Positions 7,359 through 38,247 of a stretch of DNA of 64,000 bases are shown here, in pieces. The notes beneath the pieces are model-generated. The model saw only the letters and a program-made list of their open reading frames with translations, searched no databases and was not told where the DNA came from. Positions within the stretch are counted from its first letter, which is position 1. Each line of letters starts with the position of its first letter. Where the stretch lies: the IMG/VR virus record IMGVR_UViG_3300027801_000017; one strand, 5' to 3'. The position numbers and the translations under genes were made by a program. The stretch comes from an uncultured virus (IMG/VR IMGVR_UViG_3300027801_000017) (taxonomy: Duplodnaviria > Heunggongvirae > Uroviricota > Caudoviricetes > Crassvirales).

Positions 7359-9817
7359 TACATACAAGTTCCGTCATCAATATTGGCAATAGGGCTATAG
7401 TTAAGAGCTAAAGGGTCTGTACATCCTGAGTATTTAAAGGATGATGAATCACCACAACAATAATTTATTACCCCACTTTTTTCACAAGGATGTGTAGCGC
7501 TAGGATTGTAGTTTAATGAATTTGGATTTGTACATCCGTATATTTTATAATCATTACCCCCTTCATTAGTATGCTCATCTAAAAGAGTAGAACATAATCC
7601 ATACTCTTCAGACTGCATTATTTCTATATAATCTGTATCACCACATTCATAAGCCATATCTCTCATCACACGAAGATTCATAAATCTTTGTAGATTTCTT
7701 TTTTCTGTTATATAATCATCTTCAGTACATCCTTCGCAATTAGCTTCTTTATACAATACATTTAATAATTTAAAACAATCACTACACTCTCCTTCTAGAC
7801 AACTTCCGTCATCACAAGTAGCGGTAGAATTATAATTACTAGAAACAGGGTCAGTACACCCATACTCACAGTATTCACAAGAACCATCATCACAAGTAAC
7901 AAGAACATCATAATTTATAGCGGTAGGGTCAGTACAACCATCTATACAGCAAGAACCATCATCACAGGTTGCTGATGCCGAAAAGTTAGATGCTAATGGG
8001 TCTGTACATCCATATATACACCCCGAACATGAACCATCATCACAAGTAGCTAACGGATTATAATTAGAAGATGCTAAATTTGTACAGCCATACACACAAG
8101 GTATACAGCTTCCGTTATCTTGTGTGGCTAATGGATTGTAATTTACAGAATCTCGGTCTGTACACCCCCATATAACTACATCACATGAACCATCATCAAT
8201 AGTGGCTAATGGGTTGTAGTTAGAAGATAACAGGTTAGTACATCCATAAACAGGATATAAACATGAACCATTATCAATAGTGGCTAATGAGTCATAATTA
8301 CTAGCTGTAGAATCTGTACATCCATATACATCAGTGCCACCACAATTACCCAATTCACTAATATTAAAGTCAAACTCTAGCGAACAACCAATATGCGTAC
8401 CAGGTAGTGCCATGCTCTGTATACATGAGCATGTACCTTGATTATCATCATCCACACAAACGTAGGTAAGTTTATAATCAGCTGTATGTAAATCATCAGC
8501 CCAAGGGTCAGCAGGGTCATTAGGGCCAACCGTAAGAGAAGGTGTAGGTACAGAAATATTGGCGACGCTTTTAAAATACCCCCCAGAAACAGCAGTGTTA
8601 GCACTAGTATCCCACTCTTCAAGTTTTACATCCCATCTAAGGTCTGAAGTTAAATCTTGGTTGCTACATGTAGGGCTACAGCTATTAAATGTCTGAAGAC
8701 CATTAAATGTAGGGTCAAAACCAATACTTAGCACACATGAACCTGTAGCACCCCCAATACATGAACTACTTGTATTTGCAGTTGCGTTTATCCATGATGC
8801 TGCCAATACACTATTACAATCTGTCGGTGCTCCAATTTGTATACAGCTTCCGTCATCATAACATGCGGTAGCATCATAGTTAGATGCCAATGGGTCTGTA
8901 CATCCTGACACATAACAACAGCTACCATCATCAATAGTGGCTGCCCAATTATAATTAAAAGCACCAGCATCTGTACAACCTAGAATTGTAACTGGGATTT
9001 TAAAAATACCTCCCCAATCTTGATTCCATAAAATCTTTATTCTCGTAGTTCCTCCACTACCATCAGGGATTTCCCAACCCCAATCTCCACCATCTGGTGC
9101 TCCACTTAAATCAACCGTATGTTTTTGATATACATTAGTTCCTCCAACCGAACTACAATCTCCGAAATAACTAGCCCCTCCACTAATTTCGCAAGCATAT
9201 CTTAGTGGTTGAGAACCCCCATTAGCAGGGTTAAGCGCCCAAGCCATTGACTCAAAGTTTTGTGTGCTCCCGTTAGCTATTATTGGTCTATTAGCAAGCG
9301 TGCTAGATGAGTCTGTAAAGGTTATGTCAGTTCTTAATGCAGAAGTTACATCTAGGGTATATAAAGAAACTTCTAAAGCATTTGTGTCTGGCTGGTAAGC
9401 GTAAAGAACACCTTGGTCTTGCGGAATAGTCCCCCAATTAGAAACAGGGTTTGTGTAGAATTTATATATTTTAACATCACCTTGTGCGTTTGTGCTTTTT
9501 AGTTGATATGTTTCTCCTGAATTTAATCCTGAGAAACTCTTAGACTGCATGTCTATATTGTTAAGAAAAGTAGGATTACACGTTGTGGTATTCCAAGTAA
9601 CGCCATTTACACCAGGAAATATAGTACCTGCCCCTATTCCAGTAATTTGTCTTAACTCATACGCGTAGGGGTCACCTTGATACCCTCCCAAGTCTTGGTT
9701 AGAAGGGAAGTTAATCCCACAAGTTTGAGGCATACCTATTGAGCTTATCTGTGTGTATATCTCTATCTTTTGAGATTTAACAGTAGCAAAATGGAGACCA
9801 TGTATATTATTTGGCAT
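7355..9817 (-). CDS. Cys-rich repeat protein (11 GCTDxxAxNY...DDGSC repeats)
   Basis: 820 aa; repeats counted in the translation; has its own promoter. Confidence 0.75.
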   Translation of the reverse strand: MPNNIHGLHFATVKSQKIEIYTQISSIGMPQTCGINFPSNQDLGGYQGDPYAYELRQITGIGAGTIFPGVNGVTWNTTTCNPTFLNNIDMQSKSFSGLNSGETYQLKSTNAQGDVKIYKFYTNPVSNWGTIPQDQGVLYAYQPDTNALEVSLYTLDVTSALRTDITFTDSSSTLANRPIIANGSTQNFESMAWALNPANGGSQPLRYACEISGGASYFGDCSSVGGTNVYQKHTVDLSGAPDGGDWGWEIPDGSGGTTRIKILWNQDWGGIFKIPVTILGCTDAGAFNYNWAATIDDGSCCYVSGCTDPLASNYDATACYDDGSCIQIGAPTDCNSVLAASWINATANTSSSCIGGATGSCVLSIGFDPTFNGLQTFNSCSPTCSNQDLTSDLRWDVKLEEWDTSANTAVSGGYFKSVANISVPTPSLTVGPNDPADPWADDLHTADYKLTYVCVDDDNQGTCSCIQSMALPGTHIGCSLEFDFNISELGNCGGTDVYGCTDSTASNYDSLATIDNGSCLYPVYGCTNLLSSNYNPLATIDDGSCDVVIWGCTDRDSVNYNPLATQDNGSCIPCVYGCTNLASSNYNPLATCDDGSCSGCIYGCTDPLASNFSASATCDDGSCCIDGCTDPTAINYDVLVTCDDGSCEYCEYGCTDPVSSNYNSTATCDDGSCLEGECSDCFKLLNVLYKEANCEGCTEDDYITEKRNLQRFMNLRVMRDMAYECGDTDYIEIMQSEEYGLCSTLLDEHTNEGGNDYKIYGCTNPNSLNYNPSATHPCEKSGVINYCCGDSSSFKYSGCTDPLALNYSPIANIDDGTCMY

Positions 9818-9850
9818 GTTTTTATTTTTTAATCACAAACTATAAGCTTG

Positions 9851-9881
9851 CAAATATACGAAAAAACAAGCATATATCAAA
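9851..9881 (-). promoter_or_regulatory. Bacteroidetes sigma-A-type promoter
   Basis: TTTG-N19-TATATTTG on the minus strand. Confidence 0.75.
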
Positions 9882-9889
9882 GTTATTTA

Positions 9890-10123
9890 CTAATCTGTAT
9901 CTAGTAAATCTCTCTTTAACCAATAAATAAGGTCTTGAGTTGCCTCTATAGATTCTTTTGGTGTAAGTAATAGTCCTAAGGTGTCATTAACTTTATCTAA
10001 TATGACAGATACCTGCTCACAAGTGAACATTTCTCGTTTCTTTCTGCTATATATAAAGTCGTATTTAACGTCTACATGGTAAGTTGCGGTCTGGGTATAG
10101 ATTTTTTTATCTTCTTGTTTCAT
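9890..10123 (-). CDS. Hypothetical protein
   Basis: 77 aa ORF coupled to the upstream gene. Confidence 0.5.
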   Translation of the reverse strand: MKQEDKKIYTQTATYHVDVKYDFIYSRKKREMFTCEQVSVILDKVNDTLGLLLTPKESIEATQDLIYWLKRDLLDTD

Positions 10124-10485
10124 TGTAATACTGATATTATTACTCCTGGTTTTTCTTTATCATATTCATACTTTTCAAATATAGGAATAATTTCTTCACA
10201 ATTATCATCATCTAGCCATTTGTTTTTAACCATCAAATCCTGCACTGTTTGACAAGGATTAATGTAATCAAATTTGTGTTTTGTTCCTCGGATAAATTTA
10301 AATGAAATTTTGTAGGGTTTTGACTTACCCTTTAGTAATTTTTTGAACTTTGCTTTGTTAATAAGATAATCTCCTTTTGTTTTAGAGATATATTTCATTG
10401 TTGTCTTAGAATTTATTAGCATTTTACCTGTCCATCTTTTAGAATTTTTACTAGAGGGTACGCTGCCAGGTATAAATATAGACAT
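10120..10485 (-). CDS. RusA-like Holliday junction resolvase
   Basis: IPGSVPSSKN, FDYIN, QDLM and DDDN acidic motifs. Confidence 0.7.
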   Translation of the reverse strand: MSIFIPGSVPSSKNSKRWTGKMLINSKTTMKYISKTKGDYLINKAKFKKLLKGKSKPYKISFKFIRGTKHKFDYINPCQTVQDLMVKNKWLDDDNCEEIIPIFEKYEYDKEKPGVIISVLQ

Positions 10486-10495
10486 GATAGTGATG

Positions 10496-10708
10496 CTATT
10501 TTCTTTTCATTCGTTTTAACATAATTTTTCCAGCACTACTTTCGTTCCTTATTATGTTTGGCATTCCCTCATCTTCCTCTGTATCATCCATATCCTCACC
10601 ACATTTACATATAGTTTCTAAGCAAACAACCTTACCATCTATTACCTGTATAGATAAGTTACTAACTTCTTTTTCGTATTTACAAGAATTACATTTATAT
10701 TTTGTCAT
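10496..10708 (-). CDS. Small zinc-ribbon protein
   Basis: YKCNSC...CKCG. Confidence 0.55.
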   Translation of the reverse strand: MTKYKCNSCKYEKEVSNLSIQVIDGKVVCLETICKCGEDMDDTEEDEGMPNIIRNESSAGKIMLKRMKRK

Positions 10709-11031
10709 TTAATTGACATTTTTAATAATAATAAGTATCCAATTATATCATCAACAGTATCTTCTGTTTTATCATTTATTCCTTTATTTTTTATTCTTGC
10801 CAATTTATCATCTAGTCTAGCGCATATAGCTTCAGTAGAATCTAACTTACTAAATATATTAGTAGGATTAAGAGCTGTATTGCCATAAGCTTTATTTTTA
10901 CTTATAAGTAAATTTGTTATATCTCTAGTAATTTTCATTAACTCAATATTAAAAGGATAGGTCTCTGGGTTATATCCATTTCTATCTTTCTCAAAGTACA
11001 ATTTATTATGAGCTTCTTCTTTCTTTGTCAT
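10705..11031 (-). CDS. Nucleotide modification associated domain 1 (DUF1599/Nmad1-like) protein
   Basis: KNKAYG, RLDDKLARI and DTVDDIIGY motifs. Confidence 0.75.
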   Translation of the reverse strand: MTKKEEAHNKLYFEKDRNGYNPETYPFNIELMKITRDITNLLISKNKAYGNTALNPTNIFSKLDSTEAICARLDDKLARIKNKGINDKTEDTVDDIIGYLLLLKMSIK

Positions 11032-11212
11032 TATCTAGTATTTTTATTAGTCCTTCTTGAGTGCTTAGGGGTTTAGCGTTTTTAGATTTTCTATATTCAT
11101 CTGGATTAAAAATAAGTTTAACCTCTCTTATTAAATTATCATCATTGTATTTAACAATCCATCTACTAGAGTGGTGCAGTTTATTTCTTTTTAAATGTGT
11201 TAAGTAGCTCAT
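11006..11212 (-). CDS. Hypothetical protein
   Basis: 68 aa ORF in the operon. Confidence 0.5.
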   Translation of the reverse strand: MSYLTHLKRNKLHHSSRWIVKYNDDNLIREVKLIFNPDEYRKSKNAKPLSTQEGLIKILDNDKERRSS

Positions 11213-11326
11213 AATGTAATTTTTTTATGGGTATTACCCGTTATTAAACATAAATAGTCTTGCTTAGTTGTATATACTCTTCTCCTGCAACTGGCATTAT
11301 GAAATCCTAATCTGTGTATAATGTAT

Positions 11327-11545
11327 CTAATATGCTTCATAATCGCTATCTTCATATTTATCTATATAACTTAATAGGGTTGATTGGCACTTTTGTAGTT
11401 GCTTATGAGATATTTGTAAGTCCACCTCCATAAGCCCCACATCAATCTTTGTTTTAAAATACATATATAAAGCTCCTATTATCATTCCTATTAATAAAGA
11501 TACAGATATACACAACAAAGGTTCTATCAAATTTGTATATTCCAT
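11327..11545 (-). CDS. Small membrane protein
   Basis: One N-terminal hydrophobic segment; downstream of the promoter at 11591. Confidence 0.5.
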   Translation of the reverse strand: MEYTNLIEPLLCISVSLLIGMIIGALYMYFKTKIDVGLMEVDLQISHKQLQKCQSTLLSYIDKYEDSDYEAY

Positions 11546-11590
11546 ATTGTTAATTTTGTAATGTTTTTATATAATCTACTTCCTTACCTG

Positions 11591-11622
11591 CAAAGTTAAA
11601 AATATAAACGCACTTTTCACAA
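11591..11622 (-). promoter_or_regulatory. Bacteroidetes-type promoter
   Basis: TTG-N21-TAACTTTG(C) on the minus strand. Confidence 0.55.
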
Positions 11623-11719
11623 TAAACATAGATTATTTTTTCTGTTTTGTGTTCTATTTTTTTTATACCTTTCTCAATAAGCATATTGTTTATATAAAAT
11701 TCATAGTGTTCTTTCATAT

Positions 11720-12202
11720 CTATTGTTTTAGTTTTTTAGTTTTAATAGTATCTACTCTAAAATGTTCCTTATATTCTTTTCTTGGTATAAGGACTAGCTG
11801 ACTTTGGTTATCATCTCCTCCTTTAACAATATGGAATTTATTTTTCTTTATTAAGGACTTTAAATCCGCTACCTTAATCATCCATAAATTATTGAATGGC
11901 AAATCTCTATACCAATACATAAACCATTCTGCCTCGGAGTGTGATACACCACTTGGCTTTCCTTTATATCTAATCTCTACAGCTATATTACCAGTGTCTT
12001 TAGGGTATACGTCTGTCTTTACTTCAAAAGAAACTTCTTTATCATGCTTTTCTGAATGCATCATTATATCATATTTATAATCATTATTAAGGTGTACCCA
12101 TTTCATACCCTGACACACAAGGTACATGGCTATTATTTTCTCTCCCTTTTGACCTTCCTCAAGGTCTTCCTTAAAATCACTTTTAAAATTCATGGTCATC
12201 AT
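11720..12202 (-). CDS. PD-(D/E)XK family nuclease
   Basis: GE...YDI...FEVKTD...TGNIAVE...PSG motifs. Confidence 0.7.
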   Translation of the reverse strand: MMTMNFKSDFKEDLEEGQKGEKIIAMYLVCQGMKWVHLNNDYKYDIMMHSEKHDKEVSFEVKTDVYPKDTGNIAVEIRYKGKPSGVSHSEAEWFMYWYRDLPFNNLWMIKVADLKSLIKKNKFHIVKGGDDNQSQLVLIPRKEYKEHFRVDTIKTKKLKQ

Positions 12203-13883
12203 TTTTTTCTACACAATACAAGTCATTATCAGGTAGGTGTCCTTCCTCTGTAAATCTTCCGTTCTGATGGTTATACCTAAAGTCAACCGCATCTATCTTA
12301 CCTAGGTGTCTAAACTTTACTTTCTGAACATGTATTGTTATTATGTTTTCTCTAAAATCTCTATAAACCGTTATACCATTATCCACTTGATTATAAAAAT
12401 GCGAACTACCAGCAATATCATATAGTGTCGGAACATCATACATCCCAGTATGATTCTTCATCATTTTCCTAGGGTGTGCTACTAGAAATATATGTATATC
12501 GTACTTTTGTTTAAAGATATTTAATCTTGTTAAAAGATTATTTATATATGTGGTTTCATTACCATGACCAAAATCATGAGATATTTTATTCCAAGGGTCT
12601 ATAATCATAGCGTTTATTCCATGCCTCATAACCAAACTCTTTGCAGCACTTAATATAGAATCTACACTAAATGTTTCGCTGTCGGGTCTTATCCAATGAT
12701 AGTGTTCGTTAATAAATTCCTTAGCGTACTCTAATTCTTGAGAATCCATTTGAGGATAATTAGGATTTACCCTGAAACATTTACCAATAAATTTCTCTGC
12801 TAAAACAGAGAAGTGTAATTCTATAGGGAAGTGTTCGGGACTAAACACCCCAAACTTCCAACCATGCCGACACGACAATCTCATACAGAGGTGTTCTAAA
12901 AAATGAGACTTACCATGAGTAGGTATGCCTGTTATAACTGTAAGTTGTGATGTAACAAAACTAAACACCTCATCAAAAGAACCTTGACCTATAGTTAGCC
13001 CTTTATTTAACCCATTAATATAAAGTCTATCAATATCATCTGATATAGAACTAATGCTAACCACCCCCTCTAAAGGGTAGGGTTGGGCATCAATTAAACA
13101 TTTTTCTAATTCTATTGAATTATATTTTGAAAGAACATCATTAGCATCTTTACATCCTTCAGGATAGTTAATCATGTAGCATTTATCCCTACCAATTCTT
13201 CTAGATAACTCTTTCTGTAATTCAACACCTGCCTCATCATTATCAGTGGCTAGGTAAACCTTCTTTATATTATTTATAATATCCTCACATGAGTCTAGGT
13301 AATTCATCTTTTTATTACCAGCTCCATTCGGTACGCTTATACAATTCTTATATCCTGCCTCCTCAAATGATAGTTTATCTATCTCTCCTTCTACAATTAT
13401 TATTTCTTCTGACTCCAATATATCATTAATACCATAGAATATTTTTTCAGCATCCTTAACCATTTTAAAGTTTTTACTACCATCTCTGTACTTAATGTTT
13501 ACTAATTCATCCCCCCTAAAATAATTAAATTGTATAGTGTTAATCTCTTTTAGTATTTGTGGCATATATGCCTTACCTTCTGTAACCTGATTTCTTATAA
13601 GCGTCTTTTGTGTTATACCTCTATCAGAAAACCATTCAACTAACTTGTCCGATAAATTTGTAGAGTTGCTCCATTTAGGCATTACATACTCTACATTTTT
13701 TTTTCTTTTATTTAACGAGCCATTCCATCCACAGTTATGACAATTCCAAATACCCTCATCTGCATTAACCGATAAGCATGGGTCTGACTTCTTCTTTCTA
13801 TCCTTAGAACATTTTGGACAAGTAGTTTTAAATTGTCCTGTTATTTTACCTTTTGTATTTATTCCGTAATCTAATAATATCAT
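12183..13883 (-). CDS. Primase-helicase (T7 gp4/Twinkle-like)
   Basis: CPKC/CHNC Zn finger, TOPRIM EGEID and DND, Walker A GIPTHGKS, IIDPW, VAHP. Confidence 0.92.
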   Translation of the reverse strand: MILLDYGINTKGKITGQFKTTCPKCSKDRKKKSDPCLSVNADEGIWNCHNCGWNGSLNKRKKNVEYVMPKWSNSTNLSDKLVEWFSDRGITQKTLIRNQVTEGKAYMPQILKEINTIQFNYFRGDELVNIKYRDGSKNFKMVKDAEKIFYGINDILESEEIIIVEGEIDKLSFEEAGYKNCISVPNGAGNKKMNYLDSCEDIINNIKKVYLATDNDEAGVELQKELSRRIGRDKCYMINYPEGCKDANDVLSKYNSIELEKCLIDAQPYPLEGVVSISSISDDIDRLYINGLNKGLTIGQGSFDEVFSFVTSQLTVITGIPTHGKSHFLEHLCMRLSCRHGWKFGVFSPEHFPIELHFSVLAEKFIGKCFRVNPNYPQMDSQELEYAKEFINEHYHWIRPDSETFSVDSILSAAKSLVMRHGINAMIIDPWNKISHDFGHGNETTYINNLLTRLNIFKQKYDIHIFLVAHPRKMMKNHTGMYDVPTLYDIAGSSHFYNQVDNGITVYRDFRENIITIHVQKVKFRHLGKIDAVDFRYNHQNGRFTEEGHLPDNDLYCVEKNDDHEF

Positions 13884-14224
13884 ATCACAACTTTTGTTTT
13901 TCCCTTATATTCATAAATTTTATTATTCCCTTTTAACAATTTCTTGTGTTTTTTAACACATCTTATTACTGGATAAATCTTCCTTGTTGAACGACCTTCA
14001 TCATCCTTACCATACTTAGCTTTAATAAATTTCTTATCCTTTAAGGATGTAATCCAATTACTAATGCTATTTATATGTACATTGTATGTTTGTGCAAAAT
14101 ATTTATTTGATGCAAAACAGAAGCCATCTCTTGATAAAGATAATATATCTCCATATAATATCTTAGCACCATGAGGTATATTACTGGTCTTTATATGGTT
14201 AGGTATTAGTATGTAATCTTTCAT
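13880..14224 (-). CDS. HTH replication-initiator-like protein (short)
   Basis: AKILYGDI, FCFASNKYFA and ISNWITSL resemble the N-terminal HTH of phage replisome organisers; start set at ATG 14224. Confidence 0.65.
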   Translation of the reverse strand: MKDYILIPNHIKTSNIPHGAKILYGDILSLSRDGFCFASNKYFAQTYNVHINSISNWITSLKDKKFIKAKYGKDDEGRSTRKIYPVIRCVKKHKKLLKGNNKIYEYKGKTKVVI

Positions 14225-14240
14225 AGTTTTAGTTTTAAAA

Positions 14241-14304
14241 AGGAAGGGACTCAATCAGTGGGTTGCTTTATCTGACTTTAGTTAACACCCTTGAGTCCCA
14301 ACCT
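14241..14304 (-). terminator. Long structured hairpin followed by a U-run (terminator/attenuator)
   Basis: GGGACTCAA...TTGAGTCCC stem with an inner GGGT/ACCC stem, then TTTTT on the minus strand. Confidence 0.5.
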
Positions 14305-14313
14305 ATTTAGTTA

Positions 14314-14574
14314 TTAAAATGGTAAATCATCATCTTGTTTGCTAACTACTTTTTTAGCTTCAGGTTTCCATGTGTCAACCTCAATATAATGAGTTTTACC
14401 GTACTGGTCTTCCTCTCTTTTCTTTACCACTTTTAATTTGATATACTTCTTACCATCATATTCAAATACATGTTCTTTAGGAATTTCTGTTAAACAAAGA
14501 CTACACACTACTTGGTCTCCATCAAATTTTTCAACTCCACTACCTACATAAATTCTTTCTGTTTTGTTTTCCAT
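14314..14574 (-). CDS. Putative ssDNA-binding protein
   Basis: Acidic DDDLPF C-terminus and DQYGKTH motif; lies in the recombination cluster. Confidence 0.6.
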   Translation of the reverse strand: MENKTERIYVGSGVEKFDGDQVVCSLCLTEIPKEHVFEYDGKKYIKLKVVKKREEDQYGKTHYIEVDTWKPEAKKVVSKQDDDLPF

Positions 14575-14624
14575 TTGTTTATTAATTTTATTTTTTGAAA
14601 CTATTATGGTTGTTTCGTTCACCT

Positions 14625-14924
14625 TTAGTTAATGCTTAATTGTTTGTAAAATTTACTAATCATCATTTTTGATTTTCTTGTTAATGTGTATAATCTTGAT
14701 TTATGATGCGCTCTCTCTCTAATCACTTTTAAGTATTCCTCTTTTACTAAAGAGAATAGTGCTAGTTTAAGTGTTGTTCGTGAGCATGGTACATAAGTAT
14801 CTAAAGATTTTCTATTGATATAATCATAATCATAAGCGAATAAAAGTATTTCAAATTCAGACCTAGATATTTCTTTATTCCTACACATCTCGTTAGCATA
14901 ATATCTGTACATAGCTAAACTCAT
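14625..14924 (-). CDS. Winged-helix (MarR-like) DNA-binding protein
   Basis: SRSEFEILL...LVKEEYL...SRLYTLT. Confidence 0.55.
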   Translation of the reverse strand: MSLAMYRYYANEMCRNKEISRSEFEILLFAYDYDYINRKSLDTYVPCSRTTLKLALFSLVKEEYLKVIRERAHHKSRLYTLTRKSKMMISKFYKQLSIN

Positions 14925-14931
14925 ACTTCAT

Positions 14932-15711
14932 TTATAAAATTCCTGTTTCATAATAATTTATTATATCATTATTTTCAGGTTTAGAATTAATAAAATATTT
15001 TTTATAGTCCATAAGAAGTGATGAATACTCCTCTCTACCACTAGCTATAAAATCATCAGAACAATAATACACGCCTATATTATATGGTGCTTTCTTTTCT
15101 ATGACTACAAATATAAATTCTTTTGCACCAAATCCATCTAAATAATATGCTGACTGTCTATTATACCCATACTTATAAGCGCTTCTTTTAAACCCCTCAA
15201 ATGATGAGTCTTGCGTGGTTTTAATATCAACAATAATATCATTGTTTAGTATATCAACTTTACCTTTACAATTAACTGATGATAGTGAGTCTTCCCAAAC
15301 CATAGGTACTTCTTTTTTACCTACTAGCAATTTAACAATATCTTCATTACCAACAAGAGCAGACTCCATGCCTTTGATACATTCAAATTCTATTTCTGTA
15401 ATAATATCTTTATCCTTATTTAATTCAGAAAATTCATCCCAAACCTTCCCTCTTTTAGTTTTACCATCATAGATAGCAACCTTACTAGAGAACACTTCGG
15501 GTTCTAATATAGCTAAATGAAATGCTCTACCAAAAGTCATAGCTGGTGTTGTAACGCTTCCTTTTTCAAAGTACCTAGCTAATTCTTTAGGACTTGATTT
15601 TAGTTTACCTAACATAGAGTTAGAAATAAATTTAGTATCAGAGTAATAAGCATCATCATTCGTAAACTTACTACAAGCGTTTATTATAGCTTGTTCGCTT
15701 AACGCACTCAT
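14932..15711 (-). CDS. RecE/exonuclease VIII-like PD-(D/E)XK nuclease (DUF3799)
   Basis: SNSML, FGRAFH...LEP, KGKVD, DIKTT and YNRQSAYY motifs. Confidence 0.85.
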   Translation of the reverse strand: MSALSEQAIINACSKFTNDDAYYSDTKFISNSMLGKLKSSPKELARYFEKGSVTTPAMTFGRAFHLAILEPEVFSSKVAIYDGKTKRGKVWDEFSELNKDKDIITEIEFECIKGMESALVGNEDIVKLLVGKKEVPMVWEDSLSSVNCKGKVDILNNDIIVDIKTTQDSSFEGFKRSAYKYGYNRQSAYYLDGFGAKEFIFVVIEKKAPYNIGVYYCSDDFIASGREEYSSLLMDYKKYFINSKPENNDIINYYETGIL

Positions 15712-16238
15712 TTCTTATCTACTTTAGGGTCTAACTCTACTGGCACTTCTTTAACACACTTACTAAGCTTATCTAGTTGTGCCTTAGTCATATCATATTT
15801 CTTCATTCTCATCTCTACAACATCTCCCTTACCCTCTTTACAAGCAGATAGCATAGCATCCATTATATCATTTGTCATCTTAACTTTATTAGAATTATTT
15901 ATTGCGTTCTTAACTTCTAATTCACTTGCAATAGAATTATCAATTCCAATACCTAGATTTCCTAATGCTCTACCCCAAGAACTTGTCTCGCAGTTTTCTA
16001 TAAAAGAAGTTTTATTTATAAAGGAAGAACTTTCTTTTTCATAGGCAGTTCCAGAAGCTATTAATCTATCGTTCTCATCAAATATACTAGCTTTCATAAC
16101 ACATCTAGTGTCATCTAATTCTATTATCTCTGATGTTAATGCCCAACTTTTAAAGTGTTCTCTAAAGTATTTAATTCTTTCATTTACCTCAACATATTGT
16201 TTACCTTTAATGTTGATTGTTTTCAATTTTGTTTTCAT
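15708..16238 (-). CDS. Single-strand annealing protein (Rad52/Sak-like)
   Basis: KGKQYVEVNERI and ENCETSSWGRAL motifs; paired with the exonuclease. Confidence 0.7.
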   Translation of the reverse strand: MKTKLKTINIKGKQYVEVNERIKYFREHFKSWALTSEIIELDDTRCVMKASIFDENDRLIASGTAYEKESSSFINKTSFIENCETSSWGRALGNLGIGIDNSIASELEVKNAINNSNKVKMTNDIMDAMLSACKEGKGDVVEMRMKKYDMTKAQLDKLSKCVKEVPVELDPKVDKK

Positions 16239-16613
16239 AGTTATCTGTTTTAGTTATTAATTTAGTTATTTGTTTTCATATTATATGTGTTCTTTACAAG
16301 TTGGACAAATTCTTATATTAGCTACATGACCGACAACCTCATCTCCGCAACAAGTTAATTCGTATTCAATATCTGCATAATCGTTTTCTTCTTGTGCGTC
16401 AGCAAAAGCCCTTCCCTTTTTATATATTTTTGAATAATTCATTTGAATATATTTCATAAATTCCTCCATCCAGTCTATCTTTTCTAAATTTGATTTGTTT
16501 ATGCTTATAGCCATTTTTAAAACACCTATTCTAGTATTTCTGATGTTAATGCCTAATGGTGCAGTTTCTTCATCTTTTTTCATAGTTATCTGCTTTAGTT
16601 ATTAATTTGTTTT

Positions 16614-16716
16614 GTAGTGGGGAGGAAACCACTCCCCCCCATTACTACCCCAACTGAAAAATTAAACGCTTTATGTAGGTCTTACCCTATATTAATTATT
16701 ATTGTTTGTTGGGGTA
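16614..16716 (-). ncRNA. Structured 5' leader of the recombination/replication operon
   Basis: TACCCCAAC/GTTGGGGTA stem enclosing a TAGG-GTAAGA-CCTA hairpin, plus a 13-bp G/C-rich hairpin with no U-tail. Confidence 0.45.
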
Positions 16717-16747
16717 TCTGTTTTAGTTTATATTAAATTCCATTTTT

Positions 16748-16778
16748 CAAAGTTAATATATTTTTTTAATTACACAAA
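16748..16778 (-). promoter_or_regulatory. Bacteroidetes-type promoter
   Basis: TTTG-N19-TAACTTTG on the minus strand. Confidence 0.7.
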
Positions 16779-18727
16779 TCTTATCACTATTTTTATTCAT
16801 TATCAGCTAAATAAGTTTTTCTTACTTTGTTTATTGCACCTGATACTTCAGGGAATAAAGGATGCCCTTGCATATAATTCTCTAAGAACCAAGAGTTTAC
16901 ACTCTTTAAGGCACTATGTAACCTATCACTATATTTTACAGCCATAGCCCTTTCATCTATATCTTCTAATAGTTCTTTTGATAAAGAATTGTTAAGATAT
17001 AATTCTATATTGTAGTCTTTATTTTTCTTAACAAACTCCACATAATCATGTTTATTTAGCTTATTATAATATCCTAAAATACCTGCCTTTAATGTGTATA
17101 TCTTAAACATAGCCACATCATAATTCTTCCCTCCATCATTACATAATACTACATACTTTTCTTTTTTCATTTTAATAATTTTTTAGTTTAGTTATTAGTT
17201 TTCTTGATGCCTCTATTAATTTTCCTTTATCTTCATTTTCTGTACTTGTAGACATTAATATAAAATTTATTACAAACTCTTTACATTCGTGTAATAGTAT
17301 TTTTTCATCTTGTTTATCCATCCATTTTTCTTTATTTTTTTCCATTTTGTTTTGTTTTGTTTTAGTTATTATTTGTCTTGTTTTATCTCCAATAAACTGG
17401 ACATATTATAAGTGTCCTCCATAATTTTTGCCTACAACATCAAATCTCCATTCACTTTCGTTATCTTTTTCATCTAACCCCCCATCATTATCCAATCCAA
17501 ATCCAAACTCATATTCTGCTTTTGATATTTTCTCATCTATCTCCTCAGTATATAAATCTTCATTATCAATTAGATACTCTTGCATATTATTATAGTCGTG
17601 TATCTCAGGCACTTCTACTTCTATCTCAGCGTATTTATGATATACACTTCTTTGCATAATTTTTACTTTCATTTTATTTAGTTTTAGTTAATAAATTTAT
17701 TTAGTTTTATGGTTAAATTCGTTAGATAATTGTTTTTTTATTCTTTCAACTAATTCATAAGGGGTAAAATTCCCCTCTTCAAATACTTCAATATCCACTC
17801 GCATTATTTCTTGCATTTTTTTAATCCTAGATATTGTATGTACTTTATGCGTTTCTAGTTCTACAATATAATCCATAAACGCTTGAACATAAAATTTTTT
17901 ATCAGTAGTTAATTCTTCTAAAAATCCCATATCAAAATACTCCATTCCATCACTTGCTTTTTCAAAATTTGTTTTCATTTTATTTAGTTTTAATTATTAA
18001 TTCGGTTGATGATAGTGATACTACTCTTCATATTTTCTTCTAGCATCTGCTTTTTCTTCCATAGTATTTTCTTCCATTCTTGCTTCATATTCGTTTTCTT
18101 CTTCGGGTTCTTCAAACCAATTATCACATTGATTACATACATACCCACTACATTTTGTTTTTTTATTACAAGAAGGGCATTTATTATCAAAATCTTCTAT
18201 TGTTAAATTATCTGCCCTAGAAGAAGGTACTACAACTGTAAATTTATTACATCTATACATCTCTACATTACAACAATCACTTATGAAACTATCCTCATAA
18301 GAACAACCACAACATCTACTTACATTTCCCATAGTTATTTAGTTTTTAATTAATAAATTTCGTGTGTTGTAGATATTCCTACATAATCATAATAAACCCC
18401 AATCTCAGAATGTATTACCCCATCTTCTCCAATACCTACAAGAAAAGCATTATCATCATCTTCAGATGCTTTATGGATTAATTCTTCTATATCTGTTACA
18501 TCTCCAAAATCATCATACCATTTTAAATATTCTGCCTCATAGATGAACATCTCAACTTCCCTAGCATCTTTTTGTCTGTGTCCTTTTGCAAGTTCAAACT
18601 CCTTATCTAGTTCATGTTCTTTTAGTATTTTCTCAAACTCTTTTTTGTATTTAGGTGCTATACCTAAAATCATTGTGCTTCTATATCCCATTTTATTTAA
18701 TTTTAATTAATAAATCTTTTTCTGTTT

Positions 18728-18820
18728 TTAATTTATATTCTTATTAGCATACTACTTAGTAGTATATGTTCACAATTAATTGTGTGAAGTGTTCACAATT
18801 ATTTGTAAAGGGTTGTATAA
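18728..18820 (-). repeat. ~92-bp non-coding element, copy A (iteron-like)
   Basis: Aligns with 25782-25873 in inverted orientation; TAATTG/ATG/A units recur with a 22-23 bp period. Confidence 0.7.
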
Positions 18821-20049
18821 TTATTTACACAAAGGTATATAATTATTTGTTATATTATTTTATTTACTCTTATATTTACCCATCACTCCATTATGAGTTC
18901 TTTGCAGTCCATACTTCTTAGTTCGTTTTTCAATATAAGTGTATTTCTTTTTTTCTGGGTACTTACTATTACTACACATATTTATACCAAACATCATAGC
19001 AAATGAACTTACTTCATCAGGGTTATACATTTTTTCTTTCATAGTTATATTTTTTTAGGTATTTGTAATATCATACTTATATATAAATCTTCATACTCAT
19101 CATACATTTCGTTATAATACTCTTGTGCTTCATCTGAAAATTTTATAGCATTTTCTTTTGTCTTATCCAAATTTGCCCAATCAACAAAAGTATCAGCACC
19201 AAAATTCATTTCAGTTATTTGGGTAGCCATTTCATCTATAAATTCCATCTCGTTAGGTTTCATTTCCATAGTTATTTAGTTTTAGTTAATTATTTCTAAA
19301 TTGTTTTCACTTATAAACTTAAATCTTTCTTCATCATTCTTAAACCATTGAACATCAATTATATCATCTTCATAAATTAAGTTTAGTCCATATATATATC
19401 CCTCATTATTATCATTCTCATCATATCCCATATCTTTTTTTATATTTTCCCACATTTCTAATTCTACTTTTTGTTTCTTTTCCATAGTTATTTAATTTTA
19501 ATGTTATAGTTATTAAATTCTTGATAGGTTTTTTATATACTCAATAGTTTCTTTTAAATCCTCAACACTATCATCTTTTCTATATTCTAACTCATCTGCA
19601 ATAAGCTCTTCAATCATCTCATCATTACTCATAGTTTTGCAAACGCTATGTTTATCAATATAAAGATTAAAAAACCAATCATTATATTCTTTTTCTAACT
19701 CATCTCTATCATAGTAAGATAAATAGCTTTCCTGTACCTGTTCCCATTCTTGTAATAAATCTTTCTTTTTCATTTTATTATTGTTTTAGTTATTAAATTA
19801 TTTTTGTTTTTTAGTTAGTAAGGAATAAAGCCCTCATCTAAAATTTCTAAGTCAATATGATTGGGGTTTATTTTATCCCAATTATTTGTTTTGTAATATC
19901 CTTGATTATCAAATCTTTTACGAAATTGAGTTATAAATTCCTTAGCTTCCTTTTTTGTGTTATAAGTATCGGCACTAGCAAATATATTATCAGTATAATT
20001 AAACACTACATACTTTGTTTTCATAGTTTTATTTAGTTTTAGTTATTAA

Positions 20050-20202
20050 TTATTTTCCACAACCAGCGTTCCAACCCACATAGGCAGGACTACTACCACA
20101 ATCGTTATATGTTCCACAACTTGATAGCCCTAGCACTATTATTATTCCTATTAGTATAGTTATTAGCACTACATTTCTTGATTTTTTATCTTCTTTGCTC
20201 AT
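20050..20202 (-). CDS. Small lipoprotein (50 aa, not in the ORF track)
   Basis: MSKEDKKSRNVVLITILIGIIIVLGLSSC-GTYNDCGSSPAYVGWNAGCGK; lipobox LSSC; shared leader upstream. Confidence 0.7.
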   Translation of the reverse strand: MSKEDKKSRNVVLITILIGIIIVLGLSSCGTYNDCGSSPAYVGWNAGCGK

Positions 20203-20847
20203 AGTTTTATTTGTGTTTAATTAATATTTATTCATTTTTTTCAAGTAATTCTTCTACTTCCTCTATATCTAAATCATCTACATCATAATATCCCATTATT
20301 TCGGTAAGTTCAATGTCATCTCCTTTTATTTCAATACCTTCTTCTAAATTTGTTCCATCTATATCAAACATAACATTTCTAACACTCACTTCTCCATAAT
20401 TATCTGTTGAAAAAATTCTATCTTCAACTTCCCATTCAGAAACTTCTTCATTAGGTGGTTGATGATAGTGTTCGTTATCTTGTTGTATTAAATAGACAAT
20501 CATAAGTCCTATAATTGTCGGTACTGCTATTAGTGTTCCCATAGTTTTATTTAGTTTTAGTTATTTGTGAATGTTTTTTCCAATAAGATATAAAATTATC
20601 TATATTATCTAAAGGTTTTTTTGTATCTGCATAATGTAGATGCGTAGTATTAATCATATCTACTAACACATCAATATTCTTTTCTAATTTTTCCAAATCA
20701 TCTATTAAGAATTTTTGTAATCTAGTTTCCATTTGTTTTAGTTTTAGTTATCAATGAGTAGGTTGCTCTTACTCTATCGGTTATTAGTTTATCTAACGCT
20801 TTCAATCTTTCAATCTCTAGCTTATACCATGCATATCTTTCTTTTGT

Positions 20848-22253
20848 CATCTTATTTAGTTTTAGTTATTAAAAAGGTAGTTCCTCTCTTATTTCCTCTA
20901 CTGATAAGTCATCATGTAGAATACCACTTCTTTTGTAGTCATCATACATCTTATCTGCTGCTTTAGAAGTCATTGGTTTTTTGTTTACAATTGCCCAATA
21001 TCCATTTTTCTTTACTATTAAATTGTACATAGTTATTTATTTTATGTTAGTTAAAAATCAGTTTTTAAAATTGTATTTATTAGTAGTTGCCCTTTAATAT
21101 CATTAAGTTTCTTATCTTTAATTTCCTTTAGGGTCTTTCTTATTAGTTCATTCTCTATTGCTATACTAGGTGCAACACAATTTAAGTTGCATATCTCTAC
21201 AAAATCGTTTCTAGTCATCTTATTTAGTTTTAGTTATTAAATCATTATACTTTTCCATATAATAATCTCTGCCTTTTTTCATATCGTTATAATCTTCTAA
21301 ATCTACTAAGTTATTAAAGTCCTCCTCCAAATTATTTTGTATTTCTACCCATCTTTCAATAGTTATTCTAGTATTTTTTTCTGTTTTTAATTTGTTTATT
21401 CTTTTGTCAATTAAGATAAGAATGTTTTCAATATCGTTATTTTTTGTTTTCATCTTATTTAGTTTTAGTTATTATTACATTCTTCACAATACCAATCATA
21501 TTTCTTATGATAATATTCTGTGTTTTTTAATACTCTAGTTATTCCGTAGAGGTTAAACATTTTCATTAATTTAATCATCTTATTTAGTTTTAGTTGTTAT
21601 TTATTTTATCCATTAATATCTCAATCTTTACCATTTTGCGTATATTAACTAACTGCTCATTTAATACAGATATTAATTTATCATTCTCATCACTTATTTC
21701 ATCACTATATCTTGGTATAATCTCATCTTCATAATCTCCCTCATTGTTATACCAAAACTCTCCAATAATCTCTCTACATATCATCTCTATCTCAACTAAA
21801 GAGTCATTGTAATATCCCCCCGTACCCTTATCCAACGCTTTTTGGATTTTATTAACTACTGACTGCATATCTTTAATTTCTGCATTTTGTTTTAATGGTA
21901 TTTCTACCTCGTATATTTCATTAAATACTTTCATCTTATTTAGTTTTAGTTTTTAATTTATTAAAAGGGCATACTTATTCTAGGTACAAAGTGTTCATCT
22001 TTCTTGTACAACCCTAGTATATCGTGGCATAAATCTCCTTTAAAGCCACTATATTCTCCCATACTTTCCTTGTATGCTATTAAGTCCTTGCAATAATCTA
22101 GGTTATCCATTAGAGTGAACACTACTAATTGCCGTTTGTCTTTACATTCGTGCATAAATGGTACATTGTTTTCGCAAATCTTAATTGCTTTGTCTATTGT
22201 GTCGGCTCTCCGACTTTGTATTAAAATTGTATTCATCTTATTTAGTTTTAGTT
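20848..22253 (-). repeat. Identical 20-bp leader repeat AACTAAAACTAAATAAGATG (6 copies; variants across 16.2-23.5 kb)
   Basis: CATCTTATTTAGTTTTAGTT on the plus strand at 20848, 21216, 21451, 21576, 21932 and 22234, each including a start codon. Confidence 0.9.
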
Positions 22254-22255
22254 AG

Positions 22256-22324
22256 TAATAGACAATAAGGCAGATGATAGTGTTCTACCTTATTGTTTCG
22301 CATTTTAAATGCTCATCAGTATTA
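22256..22324 (-). ncRNA. Type I hammerhead ribozyme HH2
   Basis: UAAUA CUGAUGA GCAUU-uaa-AAUGC GAAA CAAUAAGGUAGA-loop-UCUGCCUUAUUG UC|UAUUA: complete core, three stems, GUC site. Confidence 0.9.
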
Positions 22325-22334
22325 TTTTAGTTAA

Positions 22335-22583
22335 TTAATTTATTCTCATTACTAGATTAAGAGGTATATTATATCCATTCGGGTCAATAGTAGGGGATAA
22401 TTCCTCTTTGTTATCCTCATCTATTACATATTCAATTTCTAGCCAATCACTTATTTGTGGCTTATCACTTCCGTAATTATCTTTTACTCTTGCACTATCT
22501 CCGCAATCACTTAGTTCTATCAAATATCCTCCTAAATTTGAAATTGTATAGCACCCATGCGCTATGAAATTTTGGTCTTCCAT
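22335..22583 (-). CDS. Hypothetical 82-aa protein flanked by two hammerheads
   Basis: ORF track; lies between HH1 and HH2. Confidence 0.75.
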   Translation of the reverse strand: MEDQNFIAHGCYTISNLGGYLIELSDCGDSARVKDNYGSDKPQISDWLEIEYVIDEDNKEELSPTIDPNGYNIPLNLVMRIN

Positions 22584-22600
22584 AATCTTATATTTTAGTT

Positions 22601-22660
22601 AATAATAGACACTAGAGTACAACCCTAGTGTTTCGTCCTTTTGGACTCTTCAGTATTATT
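22601..22660 (-). ncRNA. Type I hammerhead ribozyme HH1
   Basis: AAUAAUA CUGAAGA GUCC-aaaa-GGAC GAAA CACUAGGG-uugua-CUCUAGUG UC|UAUUAUU: complete core, three stems, GUC site. Confidence 0.92.
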
Positions 22661-23117
22661 TTAGTCTATTCCTAGAGTAGTGTTTTCTAGGTAGTTCTTC
22701 CATTATGTAGAATGTTTCCCATTTAGTTTCCTTTACGAACACTAGAGTAAATCCTATCTTGTTGAGTATATCTGTCATACTCTGAAAGCCACAACCGCCA
22801 TCTACATAGGTTTTTGTGTTTTTACTTGCTCTATTTTGGCTCTTCTTTGTAACTTTATTCCAGTGAGTTATCCCATAGTAATCTGTTGAATTTATCTTTT
22901 TTAACTCATCATTTAGGTAGGTGTTCATAAATTGACCTAGTGCCGTTCCTTGTTTATCATAACCACCACCACCTGCCGACCCTAGTACATTGTCGTTCCT
23001 ATCGTACAACCAACATTTGTGGCTACCTGTTTTACCCCATTTGAAATGTAATGTTTTTACTTTCCAATTATCATCTAGAAAGTGTTCCTGTTTTGCTTTG
23101 CTTAAAATTGTTTTCAT
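22656..23117 (-). CDS. Hypothetical protein with GGGYDK motif
   Basis: 153 aa; AGGGGYDKQGTAL and DGGCG; its stop codon lies in HH1 stem I. Confidence 0.7.
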   Translation of the reverse strand: MKTILSKAKQEHFLDDNWKVKTLHFKWGKTGSHKCWLYDRNDNVLGSAGGGGYDKQGTALGQFMNTYLNDELKKINSTDYYGITHWNKVTKKSQNRASKNTKTYVDGGCGFQSMTDILNKIGFTLVFVKETKWETFYIMEELPRKHYSRNRLK

Positions 23118-23699
23118 ATCTAGTAATTTGTAGATATAAACGGGCTAATTTGTCCTAGCTTTTCGTTAATATCTTGGTTAATTTTGCGTATTAGTTCAAC
23201 ATCTTTTTGCTTATAAAACTCTAGCAATTCCCTATTTTTAATAGGGTTTTGCTCTAGTTCTATGATTAATTTTCTTAATTCAATTATATTCATATCTAGT
23301 AGTTTTTAGTTTTTCCATTAGTAATATCTGTATAGAATAGTAGTGCCATCGGTTTGTGTATTCTATTCACTCCTTTGTAATCTTGTATAATTTTCTGCAT
23401 TTCTAATCTAGTAAAATACTTTCCATTAGGTGCAATGAAATCTTTATTTTTTAAGACTTTTCCGTAATCATTCATATCTAGTTATTTAGTTTAATTAAAA
23501 AAGGATTGAAACAGCCATCAAAGTATTTTAGCTTGTATCTGCTATCTTTGTAGTTGTAAATTCTAGGTAAATCATTACCTTTGTTATCTTGGTAGGGGTT
23601 GCCATTATAATATTTGTGTTTTCTACAAAAGTCAAGATTAAATTTTTTAGATATACTATTGAGTACTCTAAAATTTTCTACTACTTCATACATAATTGT

Positions 23700-24078
23700 G
23701 TTAATTTAGTTAATAGTGAAGGTAGGACAAACGAATGTCCTTATCTAGTAATTCGTGTTAATAGATATTCTCTAGTAGAAACCTCCATAAATAAAAGTTC
23801 TTTTTGCCTTAGTTTCTCGGCACTTAATAATCCGATACACGCTAGCTACTTATCTCTAGTTTATCCGCAATTATTGTATCGTTTCTCTAGTACGGCTCTA
23901 GATACTCCTCAGCACTCCCTAGATATAGCTATCTAGTTGTTAATGGTGGCTCAATTTTGTTCAGTAGTGAATGTAGACCCTATGATATGTAGTGTTTCGG
24001 GCTGTACTCATTCCCGCTAATGTTTTGCGGTTGGTACTTGTGAACGTGTCATGTTGAAAGGTGTTTGTTTCGTTTTGA
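23700..24078 (-). ncRNA. Long structured 5' leader / candidate ncRNA of the early transcript
   Basis: ~385 nt with no minus-strand ORF in the track and several hairpins (CCGC/GCGG, CTAGATA/TATCTAG, CGATACA/TGTATCG, AGGACA/TGTCCT). Confidence 0.45.
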
Positions 24079-24083
24079 CAGTG

Positions 24084-24115
24084 CAAACATACGGATAATA
24101 TTTGACGTGACCAAA
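24084..24115 (-). promoter_or_regulatory. Probable major early promoter (Bacteroidetes-type)
   Basis: TTTG-N20-TATGTTTG(C) on the minus strand at the head of the small-ORF array. Confidence 0.75.
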
Positions 24116-24598
24116 TTTAAGCGTTAAGTCGCTGAAGTTCAATGAGTTATGAGGGTGTAATTTGGGCTTGTTTTGGTGTTCAATGTGTAGTTTTGTACTT
24201 GTTTATGTGTTTGTTGAGAGTTTTACGTTACTCTAGTGGTGTACCTAGTAAACAAAAGACATCAAAAAGCCATGCAGCAAGGCACAAAACAAGCGTTTTA
24301 CTAGGGTTGAGAGGGGGTGGCGTAGGTGTTCCCATGCTTCACGCCCATTCGTAGCGCTAGAAGGGGATAATGTATTTTTTAAGGGGATAAAAGCACCCAC
24401 CCCCCTAAAAAAAAGCGTTTTTCCTTTTAGGAAGTGAGTACCCTGCCATAGTATAGAACCCCCCTGATAAATATCTGTGCGAAATTTTAAAAAAAAATAG
24501 CAGTAAAGGTGTTTTGGAATAAGAGACTATATATATAGGGTATTGATATGGCATACAATACTTGCTATCAAGAAGTTAGGTAGGTAAAGTGTTAAAAT

Positions 24599-24662
24599 AA
24601 GTACCCTGGGAGGGCACTACAAGTACCCTGGGGGGGAACTACAAGTACCCTGGGAGGGCACT
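24599..24662. repeat. Three tandem 22-bp G/C-rich repeats
   Basis: AAGTACCCTGGG(A/G)GGG(C/A)ACTAC at 24599, 24621 and 24643 (third copy 20 bp). Confidence 0.9.
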
Positions 24663-24686
24663 TATGAGGGTTTATTTAGTGGGTTG

Positions 24687-25187
24687 TTAAAAGGAACGAA
24701 TAGCACGTACATCGTTTCCGTCACCCTTAGAGTTTTTGTTTTGACTACCACTATTGAAATCACGCCTCCATGCGTGAGTGTTGCTGAACTCCGAAGAACT
24801 CCAATATATTGCACTACTAAAACTACCAAGCCCTTCTTGGTGTAGATTGTTATACATTTGAGTCAATTCATCTTTTGAAGGCAGGAACCAATCACTATAT
24901 GCTCCAATAGTTAAATCACGACATAAATCAGCAGCAATATCTGCTGTAGTGCATTCAGCTAATATATCAATAGTATTTTGTGCCCCTGTACCAATATCTG
25001 TCCCATCTGCACCAGTAATAGGAGTGCTAGAACAACCCCATACCGCACTATTAGATTGGTCTGAAGGTGCAGCAATTAATCCTCCCCCAGAACCGTCTAA
25101 ATAAAAGATAAGACCTCCTTGATATGTATCACCAAGATGTAAATTTATTTTAGTTTGATAAGATAATCCTATTCCTAATCCTAACAT
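24687..25187 (-). CDS. DUF1566 (Lcl C-terminal, C-type-lectin-fold) protein
   Basis: GDTYQGGLIFY, DWFLPSKDEL, YWSSSE and VRAIRSF motifs. Confidence 0.8.
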   Translation of the reverse strand: MLGLGIGLSYQTKINLHLGDTYQGGLIFYLDGSGGGLIAAPSDQSNSAVWGCSSTPITGADGTDIGTGAQNTIDILAECTTADIAADLCRDLTIGAYSDWFLPSKDELTQMYNNLHQEGLGSFSSAIYWSSSEFSNTHAWRRDFNSGSQNKNSKGDGNDVRAIRSF

Positions 25188-25754: not shown

Positions 25755-25758
25755 ATTG

Positions 25759-25789
25759 CAAATATACGAAAAAACAATCTTTTATACAA
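25759..25789 (-). promoter_or_regulatory. Bacteroidetes-type promoter (probably leaderless transcript)
   Basis: TTG-N20-TATATTTG, 4 nt before the ATG. Confidence 0.65.
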
Positions 25790-30148: not shown

Positions 30149-30183
30149 TTTGCAAATATACAAAATTTTCGTTATATTTGCAA
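30149..30183. promoter_or_regulatory. Overlapping divergent promoter pair
   Basis: Plus: TTTG(30149)-N20-TATATTTG(30173). Minus: TTG(30183)-N20-TATATTTG(30160-30153). Confidence 0.75.
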
Positions 30184-38188: not shown

Positions 38189-38219
38189 TTTGATATATCC
38201 TATAAATTTCGTATATTTG
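38189..38219 (+). promoter_or_regulatory. Bacteroidetes-type promoter
   Basis: TTTG-N19-TATATTTG. Confidence 0.75.
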
Positions 38220-38247
38220 TAAACTTTAATATTTTAGTATACTTTCC

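Follow-up and report, generated by a model that had tools for sequence, protein, structure and literature searches.

The window, as we call the whole 64-kb stretch of DNA analysed here, is phage DNA and encodes a terminase, a portal protein, a primase-helicase and a crAss-type muzzle protein (51 bits, above the cut-off). Its closest cultured relatives infect Flavobacterium, Cellulophaga, Maribacter and Riemerella, with protein identities of 33-41%, and the sequencing runs containing window DNA are marine. By blastn, the region studied gave no match to cultured phages. We found two hammerhead motifs, HH1 and HH2, within about 40 co-oriented small minus-strand ORFs upstream of the replication genes; from approximately 23693 down to 9890 all ORFs are on the strand of the ribozymes and the gaps between them are tiny. 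The features of the locus, in the direction of the minus strand, are the following.

25756-25770, minus strand: promoter-like 15-mer TTCGTATATTTGCAA, the nearest exact copy on the ribozymes' strand (putative promoter)
22656-23117, minus strand: 153-aa ORF upstream of HH1, with its TAA stop (22658-22656) within the 5' strand of HH1 stem I
22601-22660, minus strand: HH1, type I hammerhead (sequence; 57.2 bits with model R1, described below; compensatory stem II pairs in a strain variant)
22654-22660 and 22601-22607, minus strand: 5' and 3' strands of HH1 stem I (sequence)
22647-22653, 22635-22646 and 22631-22634, minus strand: HH1 core CUGAAGA, stem II and GAAA (sequence)
22610-22630, 22609 and 22608, minus strand: HH1 stem III, U16.1 and C17, with the predicted cut between 22608 and 22607 (sequence)
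22584-22600, minus strand: leader of the 82-aa gene, AACTAAAA at 22593-22600 plus a 9-nt spacer
22335-22583, minus strand: 82-aa ORF between HH1 and HH2 (ORF list)
22256-22324, minus strand: HH2, type I hammerhead (sequence; 55.7 bits with R1; hybrid variant in the related contig L241)
22320-22324 and 22256-22260, minus strand: 5' and 3' strands of HH2 stem I (sequence)
22313-22319, 22300-22312 and 22296-22299, minus strand: HH2 core CUGAUGA, stem II and GAAA (sequence)
22263-22295, 22262 and 22261, minus strand: HH2 stem III, U16.1 and C17, with the predicted cut between 22261 and 22260 (sequence)
22237-22253, minus strand: leader of the 91-aa gene, AACTAAAACTAAATAAG, a 17-mer also found directly before five other ATGs of the operon
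21961-22236, minus strand: 91-aa ORF downstream of HH2 (ORF list), absent from L241

The array of small genes would be early and transcribed as one unit. Copies of the 15-mer TTCGTATATTTGCAA, which we take to include the Bacteroidetes -7 motif, are located just 5' of operon-first genes, with 16 occurrences at up to three mismatches versus 4.65 expected. Those at 9848-9862 and 25756-25770 (both minus) are exact; others are at 30150-30164 (minus) and 38208-38222 (plus), and a three-mismatch copy is found at 24081-24095 (minus). A sigma-70 promoter scan of the window gave 70 candidates versus 72.5 expected from shuffles. Two larger non-coding gaps of the operon also gave better folds than shuffled sequences, each with no Rfam match: 16584-16792 (minus; z -3.8) carries a G+C-rich hairpin, and 18692-18859 (minus; z -3.5) carries three hairpins from repeated AAUAAUU-type inverted repeats.

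Reading of the minus strand bore out the two hammerheads of a preliminary description of this DNA, with the sequences, the full core and the paired stems that it had claimed for both. In HH1, stem I is made of seven A-U pairs (AAUAAUA/UAUUAUU), stem II is GUCC-AAAA-GGAC and stem III is CACUAGGG-UUGUA-CUCUAGUG, closed by A15.1-U16.1. Stem I of HH2 has five A-U pairs (UAAUA/UAUUA) with an A.C mismatch next to them, followed by a stem II that reads GCAUU-UAA-AAUGC and a stem III in which 8+4 pairs enclose a 9-nt loop. The core positions C3-U4-G5-A6-N7-G8-A9 read CUGAAGA in HH1 and CUGAUGA in HH2. Both contain G12-A13-A14 and the A15.1-U16.1 pair (GAAA ... UC), a C at position 17, where the class has H and not G, and the GUC cleavage triplet. 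Three helices surround the core, G10.1-C11.1 closes stem II, and the topology is that of type I, stem I being open and loops closing stems II and III. These two stems are present in the minimum-energy folds of HH1 and HH2 (z -3.4 and -5.0). Stem I has a duplex energy of -2.5 kcal/mol in HH1; HH2 alone may cleave slowly or not at all, since its stem I is calculated at only -0.1 kcal/mol and is followed by the A.C mismatch. Also, the minimum-energy fold of HH1 with its flanks pairs AAUAGAC with GUCUAUU, masking the cleavage site. Loop II of HH2 (UUAAA) agrees with the family consensus, and that of HH1 (AAAA) deviates from the U-N-A-A-U loop usual in the family, so the tertiary contact between stem I and loop II that is needed for fast cleavage is uncertain in HH1.

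The pattern CTGANGA..CGAAA..GTCT has two matches in the window compared with a mean of 0.01 in 100 dinucleotide shuffles, none of which had two or more. The check with Infernal and the Rfam hammerhead models that had been proposed for HH1 and HH2 gave no match at gathering score to either of them, nor did the Rfam scan find anything at that score in the whole 64-kb window. In a permissive scan, the best family below threshold was RF03152 RAGATH-1-hammerhead, with 39.5 bits for HH1 and 28.0 bits for HH2 versus a gathering score of 56.3 bits; all other Rfam hammerhead models stayed under 20 bits, and within the hammerhead clan CL00010 HH9 gave 19.4 bits versus 52 and type III 17.7 bits versus 48.5. 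Because the Rfam models remained below gathering score, we constructed an independent one. Viral contigs scanned for TACTGANGAG..CGAAAC..GTCTA gave at least 131 matches in at least 124 loci, and among the matches listed 102 of 131 have at least five pairs in stem I, four in stem II and five in stem III. The covariance model R1 was made from an alignment (A1) of 60 of these phage hammerheads, chosen for short loops, the window being excluded. Run without filters, R1 assigns 57.2 bits to HH1 (E 7e-14) and 55.7 bits to HH2 (E 2e-13), both over the full length of the model (positions 1-65 of 65). The third-best match on both strands of the 64 kb reaches 13.8 bits (E 0.63), so the window contains exactly two hammerheads. 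HH1 and HH2 are real and not chance matches, and are members of a large family of type I hammerheads that lie between phage genes. None of the hammerheads detected with R1 (at least 29, in 20 loci) reaches any Rfam gathering score. A search of viral contigs for the exact flank pattern gave no match.

The preliminary description had argued for selection on structure and proposed to look for covariation in related contigs, where compensatory changes were indeed found at three levels. When 119 family members were aligned to R1, 96.3% of the pair cells were standard versus 61.8% in shuffled controls, and 14 of 17 pairs had changed on both sides; slid controls gave 27-40%. These figures should be read knowing that the seeds were selected for pairing and the alignment was fitted to the model. 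In this family stem I covaries, and CUGANGA, GAAA and GUC are invariant. Scanning metagenomes for stem I of the window produced 27 marine hammerheads in 25 loci, all 27 of which pair; in an alignment likewise fitted to the model, 98.2% of their cells are paired versus 81.8% when shuffled, and eight pairs in stems II and III have changed on both sides. One of these 25 loci, L240, is 100% identical to window positions 21656-23259. A contig from another marine run (X3), which corresponds to 22606-22747, has eight differences from the window, six of them within HH1. In stem II they convert U-A to G-C and C-G to A-U, that is, two compensatory pairs, and the other HH1 changes affect a loop base and N7, where A is replaced by U; the remaining HH1 sequence is identical over the contig, whose start is 22606. 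In L241 and in X2 and X3 contigs we found a hybrid hammerhead with stem II of HH2, and stem III and the 3' strand of stem I of HH1, the pairing being intact; stem I of the L241 form is a perfect helix of 7 bp. L241, which carries this hybrid and is without the window genes at 21590-22236, is 93-99% identical to the window segment by segment; L240 and L241 are strains of the window's phage. The helix covariation expected of the hammerhead class is thus found at the HH1/HH2 locus, in the subfamily and in the family. These substitution patterns, together with the R1 scores, indicate that HH1 and HH2 are under selection for structure, and the earlier claim is upheld.

The position of the family in phage genomes is regular. 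In 91 of 97 members an ORF start lies within 200 nt, at a median of 29 nt, and in 71 of the 80 members with an upstream ORF end found, the upstream stop ends between -10 and +4 nt of stem I; as a rule, stem I in this family adjoins a stop codon. In the window the upstream stop codon lies inside stem I of HH1, where the overlap noticed earlier is real (TAA of the ORF at 22656-23117), and 10 nt before stem I of HH2, and both hammerheads have the family position, between an upstream stop and a start 20-40 nt downstream, with 24-nt leaders. For the 153-aa protein encoded upstream, the viral contigs searched gave no relatives. In several family members (L014, L033, L034, L063, L067, L083, L104, L120 and L122) inspection by eye suggests that a complement of the stem I 3' strand is present immediately downstream and could pair with it, sometimes looping a Shine-Dalgarno sequence, which would give a 5'-terminal hairpin after cleavage.

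The distribution of these elements is sporadic. Among 80 primase-relative loci, 29 extend for 6 kb or more upstream of the primase gene (993 kb in total, counting the window), and only two of these relatives carry family hammerheads, L139 with five and L141 with six, all on the primase strand. Both also contain pistol ribozymes (RF02679), three in L139 and four in L141, so that hammerheads and pistol ribozymes together place a ribozyme at most small-gene junctions over about 5 kb (L141 1-5000 and L139 1900-5300). Six other relatives sampled with Rfam gave no ribozyme match. The ribozymes are therefore dispensable for this operon type. Among four phage records searched, one, the cultured Flavobacterium phage elemoE_6-9C, whose host is Flavobacterium sp. 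BAL314, contains a family member (47.3 bits) between gp64 and gp66, 28 nt before the gp66 start. It corresponds to L221 1499-1568 and to NC_055854.1 16298-16367 (minus), with the predicted cut between 16310 and 16309, under the annotated opposite-strand 35-aa gp65, and its stem I marks the end of a 21-codon ORF that is not annotated. In another locus (L225 594-661), a hammerhead and a different gene follow a homologue of a 57-aa ORF after which the window has no hammerhead.

The positions predicted earlier for the cuts, between 22608 and 22607 and between 22261 and 22260, agree with the sequence, each being 24 nt before an ATG (22583 and 22236). What did not stand is the idea that this regularity belongs to the ribozymes. 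The 24 nt are made of the 7-nt 3' strand of stem I, the 8-nt AACTAAAA and a 9-nt spacer. AACTAAAA occurs 34 times in the window versus 11 expected, with 28 copies on the minus strand from 9497 to 25155, and 18 of the 46 minus-strand starts listed have it in their leader, usually at 9 nt from the ATG; the majority of these 18 lack a ribozyme. Also, the 17-mer AACTAAAACTAAATAAG is directly 5' of six ATGs, one being that after HH2. The leader is 24-41 nt long in the 27 close relatives (commonest 27) and has a median of 29 nt in the 97 members of the wider family (interquartile range 25-38). The distances are thus equal because the leader of the operon is homogenised, and not as a property of the ribozymes. 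The homogenised leader, AACTAAAA usually followed by CTAAATAAG, precedes many small ORFs between 16238 and 23693 (minus), and relatives have leader versions of their own, such as CCCTAAATTAAATTATTATG in L141. This repeated leader may allow translation without a Shine-Dalgarno sequence and also be a site where gene cassettes recombine. We considered AACTAAAA flanking each ribozyme as a target-site duplication and rejected it, since related hammerheads lack the 5' AACTAAAA, with the exception of L240 and L241, strains of the same phage.

The 82-aa protein encoded between both hammerheads (22335-22583, minus) has a beta-rich domain with the invariant motif IDPNGYNIP. The domain is conserved in ten viral loci, always inside larger ORFs, and these ten relatives have no hammerhead nearby. 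We found no Pfam or PHROG family and no usable Atlas match for it, and its AlphaFold model (pLDDT 83.4) gave no PDB fold match at E <= 0.001. The single RNA-library record, a 169-nt contig of X20 (22415-22581), falls inside the 82-aa gene; such contigs carry neither ends nor strand.

Taking this together, we estimate a probability of roughly 70% that HH1 and HH2 function as type I hammerhead ribozymes on a long minus-strand transcript of the small-gene array. Transcription across the sites, cleavage in the cell, 5'-OH ends and any effect on expression are what the sequence would predict. Each ribozyme would fold after the ribosome leaves the preceding stop codon and would then cut itself after C17, and terminating ribosomes could modulate the cleavage. 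The upstream RNA would carry a terminal 2',3'-cyclic phosphate, preceded by the stable stems II and III, and the downstream RNA would start with a 5'-OH, 24 nt before the AUG, in an unstructured A-rich leader. Cuts at both HH1 and HH2 would release a 347-nt single-gene mRNA (22607 down to 22261) for the 82-aa protein, and the HH2 cut would give the 91-aa gene a separate 5' end. The likely outcome would be an altered stability or translation of these cistrons compared with their neighbours.

Another possibility, which we consider unlikely, is that the hammerheads are active but mainly passengers or junction pieces of gene cassettes that are shuffled, where the conserved core and flank act as short homology blocks for swapping small genes and persist because they are harmless. 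Several loci are consistent with it: one and the same upstream gene end (..VARHEK[S/P]AL) precedes a hammerhead and then two different genes in L224 and in L232/L242, L241 has the hybrid ribozyme and is without two window genes, L225 has a hammerhead at a junction that is bare in the window, and the presence in 2 of 29 relatives is sporadic. Contig joints from 21952 to 22233 and from 22258 to 22655 point in the same direction as hints only, being weak because their sides are of 24 and 21 nt. However, the strictly conserved catalytic core and the compensatory stem changes indicate selection for a working ribozyme, the placement from stop codon to ribosome-binding leader is not random, and plain leader repeats could serve for recombination without any ribozyme.

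That the motifs are inactive relics or plain hairpins, acting as partial terminators or 3' end stabilisers without catalysis, seems to us very improbable. HH1 stem III followed by CUAUUAUUAA was flagged as terminator-like, stem I of HH2 is very weak and every Rfam score is below gathering, but the U tract is interrupted, the independent model R1 gives E values of about 1e-13, and such a reading leaves unexplained the invariant CUGANGA, GAAA and GUC of 119 relatives and their covarying stem I. Still less probable is a third alternative, in which the pair excises the 82-aa mRNA and then clamps it, or ligates it (by the ribozyme or a host RtcB-type ligase), into an end-protected circle: the stem I sequences of HH1 and HH2 are interchangeable, the 347-nt RNA could be clamped end to end because the HH1 3' product starts with UAUUAUU, which fits the HH2 5' strand (-2.5 kcal/mol, versus -0.1 kcal/mol with its own 3' strand), and in L141 as in L139 the members of one adjacent pair have stem I in common and differ in stems II and III, but stem I matches in only 5 of 25 adjacent pairs (5.7% of random pairs), one of the five duplicating the window and another having been picked by the search pattern, the window yielded no RNA ligase, and Perreault et al., 2011 (PMC3088659) report that circular or spliced products were looked for and none found. 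As a family rule, identity of stem I between adjacent hammerheads is unsupported, at those 5 of 25 pairs.

The reading of HH1 and HH2 as functional ribozymes has precedents. In prophages, Perreault et al., 2011 (PMC3088659) describe clusters of hammerheads on either side of single genes or of short blocks of genes, propose processing into single-gene mRNAs, and report cleavage in vitro and, in one case, in E. coli; both the arrangement and the processing idea are thus already published for prophages, and the processing idea is also found in a 2019 review (PMC6765202). As in those prophages, several hammerheads per phage transcript bracket here a small unassigned gene, and the type I architecture is likewise known from bacteria. 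Unlike them, the present ones are found in marine phages of the Flavobacteriia type with crAss-like structural genes, and the genes have no Shine-Dalgarno sequence and use an A-rich repeated leader. In the literature searched we found no paper that treats hammerheads together with crAss-like or flavobacterial phages. The 2011 paper also describes HHphage of the haloviruses HF1/HF2, with a mapped 5' end within 3 nt of the cut. It shares with our case a hammerhead a few nt before a start codon, that of HHphage being in an early polycistronic transcript, and differs in being a core variant located 13 nt before the start in archaeal viruses, versus a canonical core and 24 nt here. RF03152 RAGATH-1 is also a type I hammerhead with the same core, but stem II is an ordinary helix of 4-5 bp in HH1 and HH2, and HH2 is without the upstream hairpin of the model; this comparison is based on the Rfam model, RAGATH-1 being unmentioned in the main text of Weinberg 2017 (PMC5737381). 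Pistol ribozymes (RF02679) occupy the same intergenic slots in the operons of relatives, with an unrelated fold, and none was found in the window. In synthetic insulators of the RiboJ type, engineered from a plant satellite RNA, a hammerhead strips the upstream context and leaves a defined 5'-OH leader. By analogy, HH1 and HH2 could have a role as natural insulators.

The findings leave the knowledge of the hammerhead as a kind of element unchanged. They denote that the curated thresholds of Rfam miss a whole type I family of phage intergenic hammerheads, with the visible consequence that in elemoE_6-9C an ORF (gp65) has been annotated over a ribozyme. HH1 and HH2 add well-supported ribozyme-punctuated operons in marine phages of Flavobacteriia-type hosts. 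Furthermore, the purpose of phage hammerheads is still described as undefined in the 2019 review (PMC6765202), and elemoE_6-9C with its host constitutes a tractable cultured pair in which their role may be approached.
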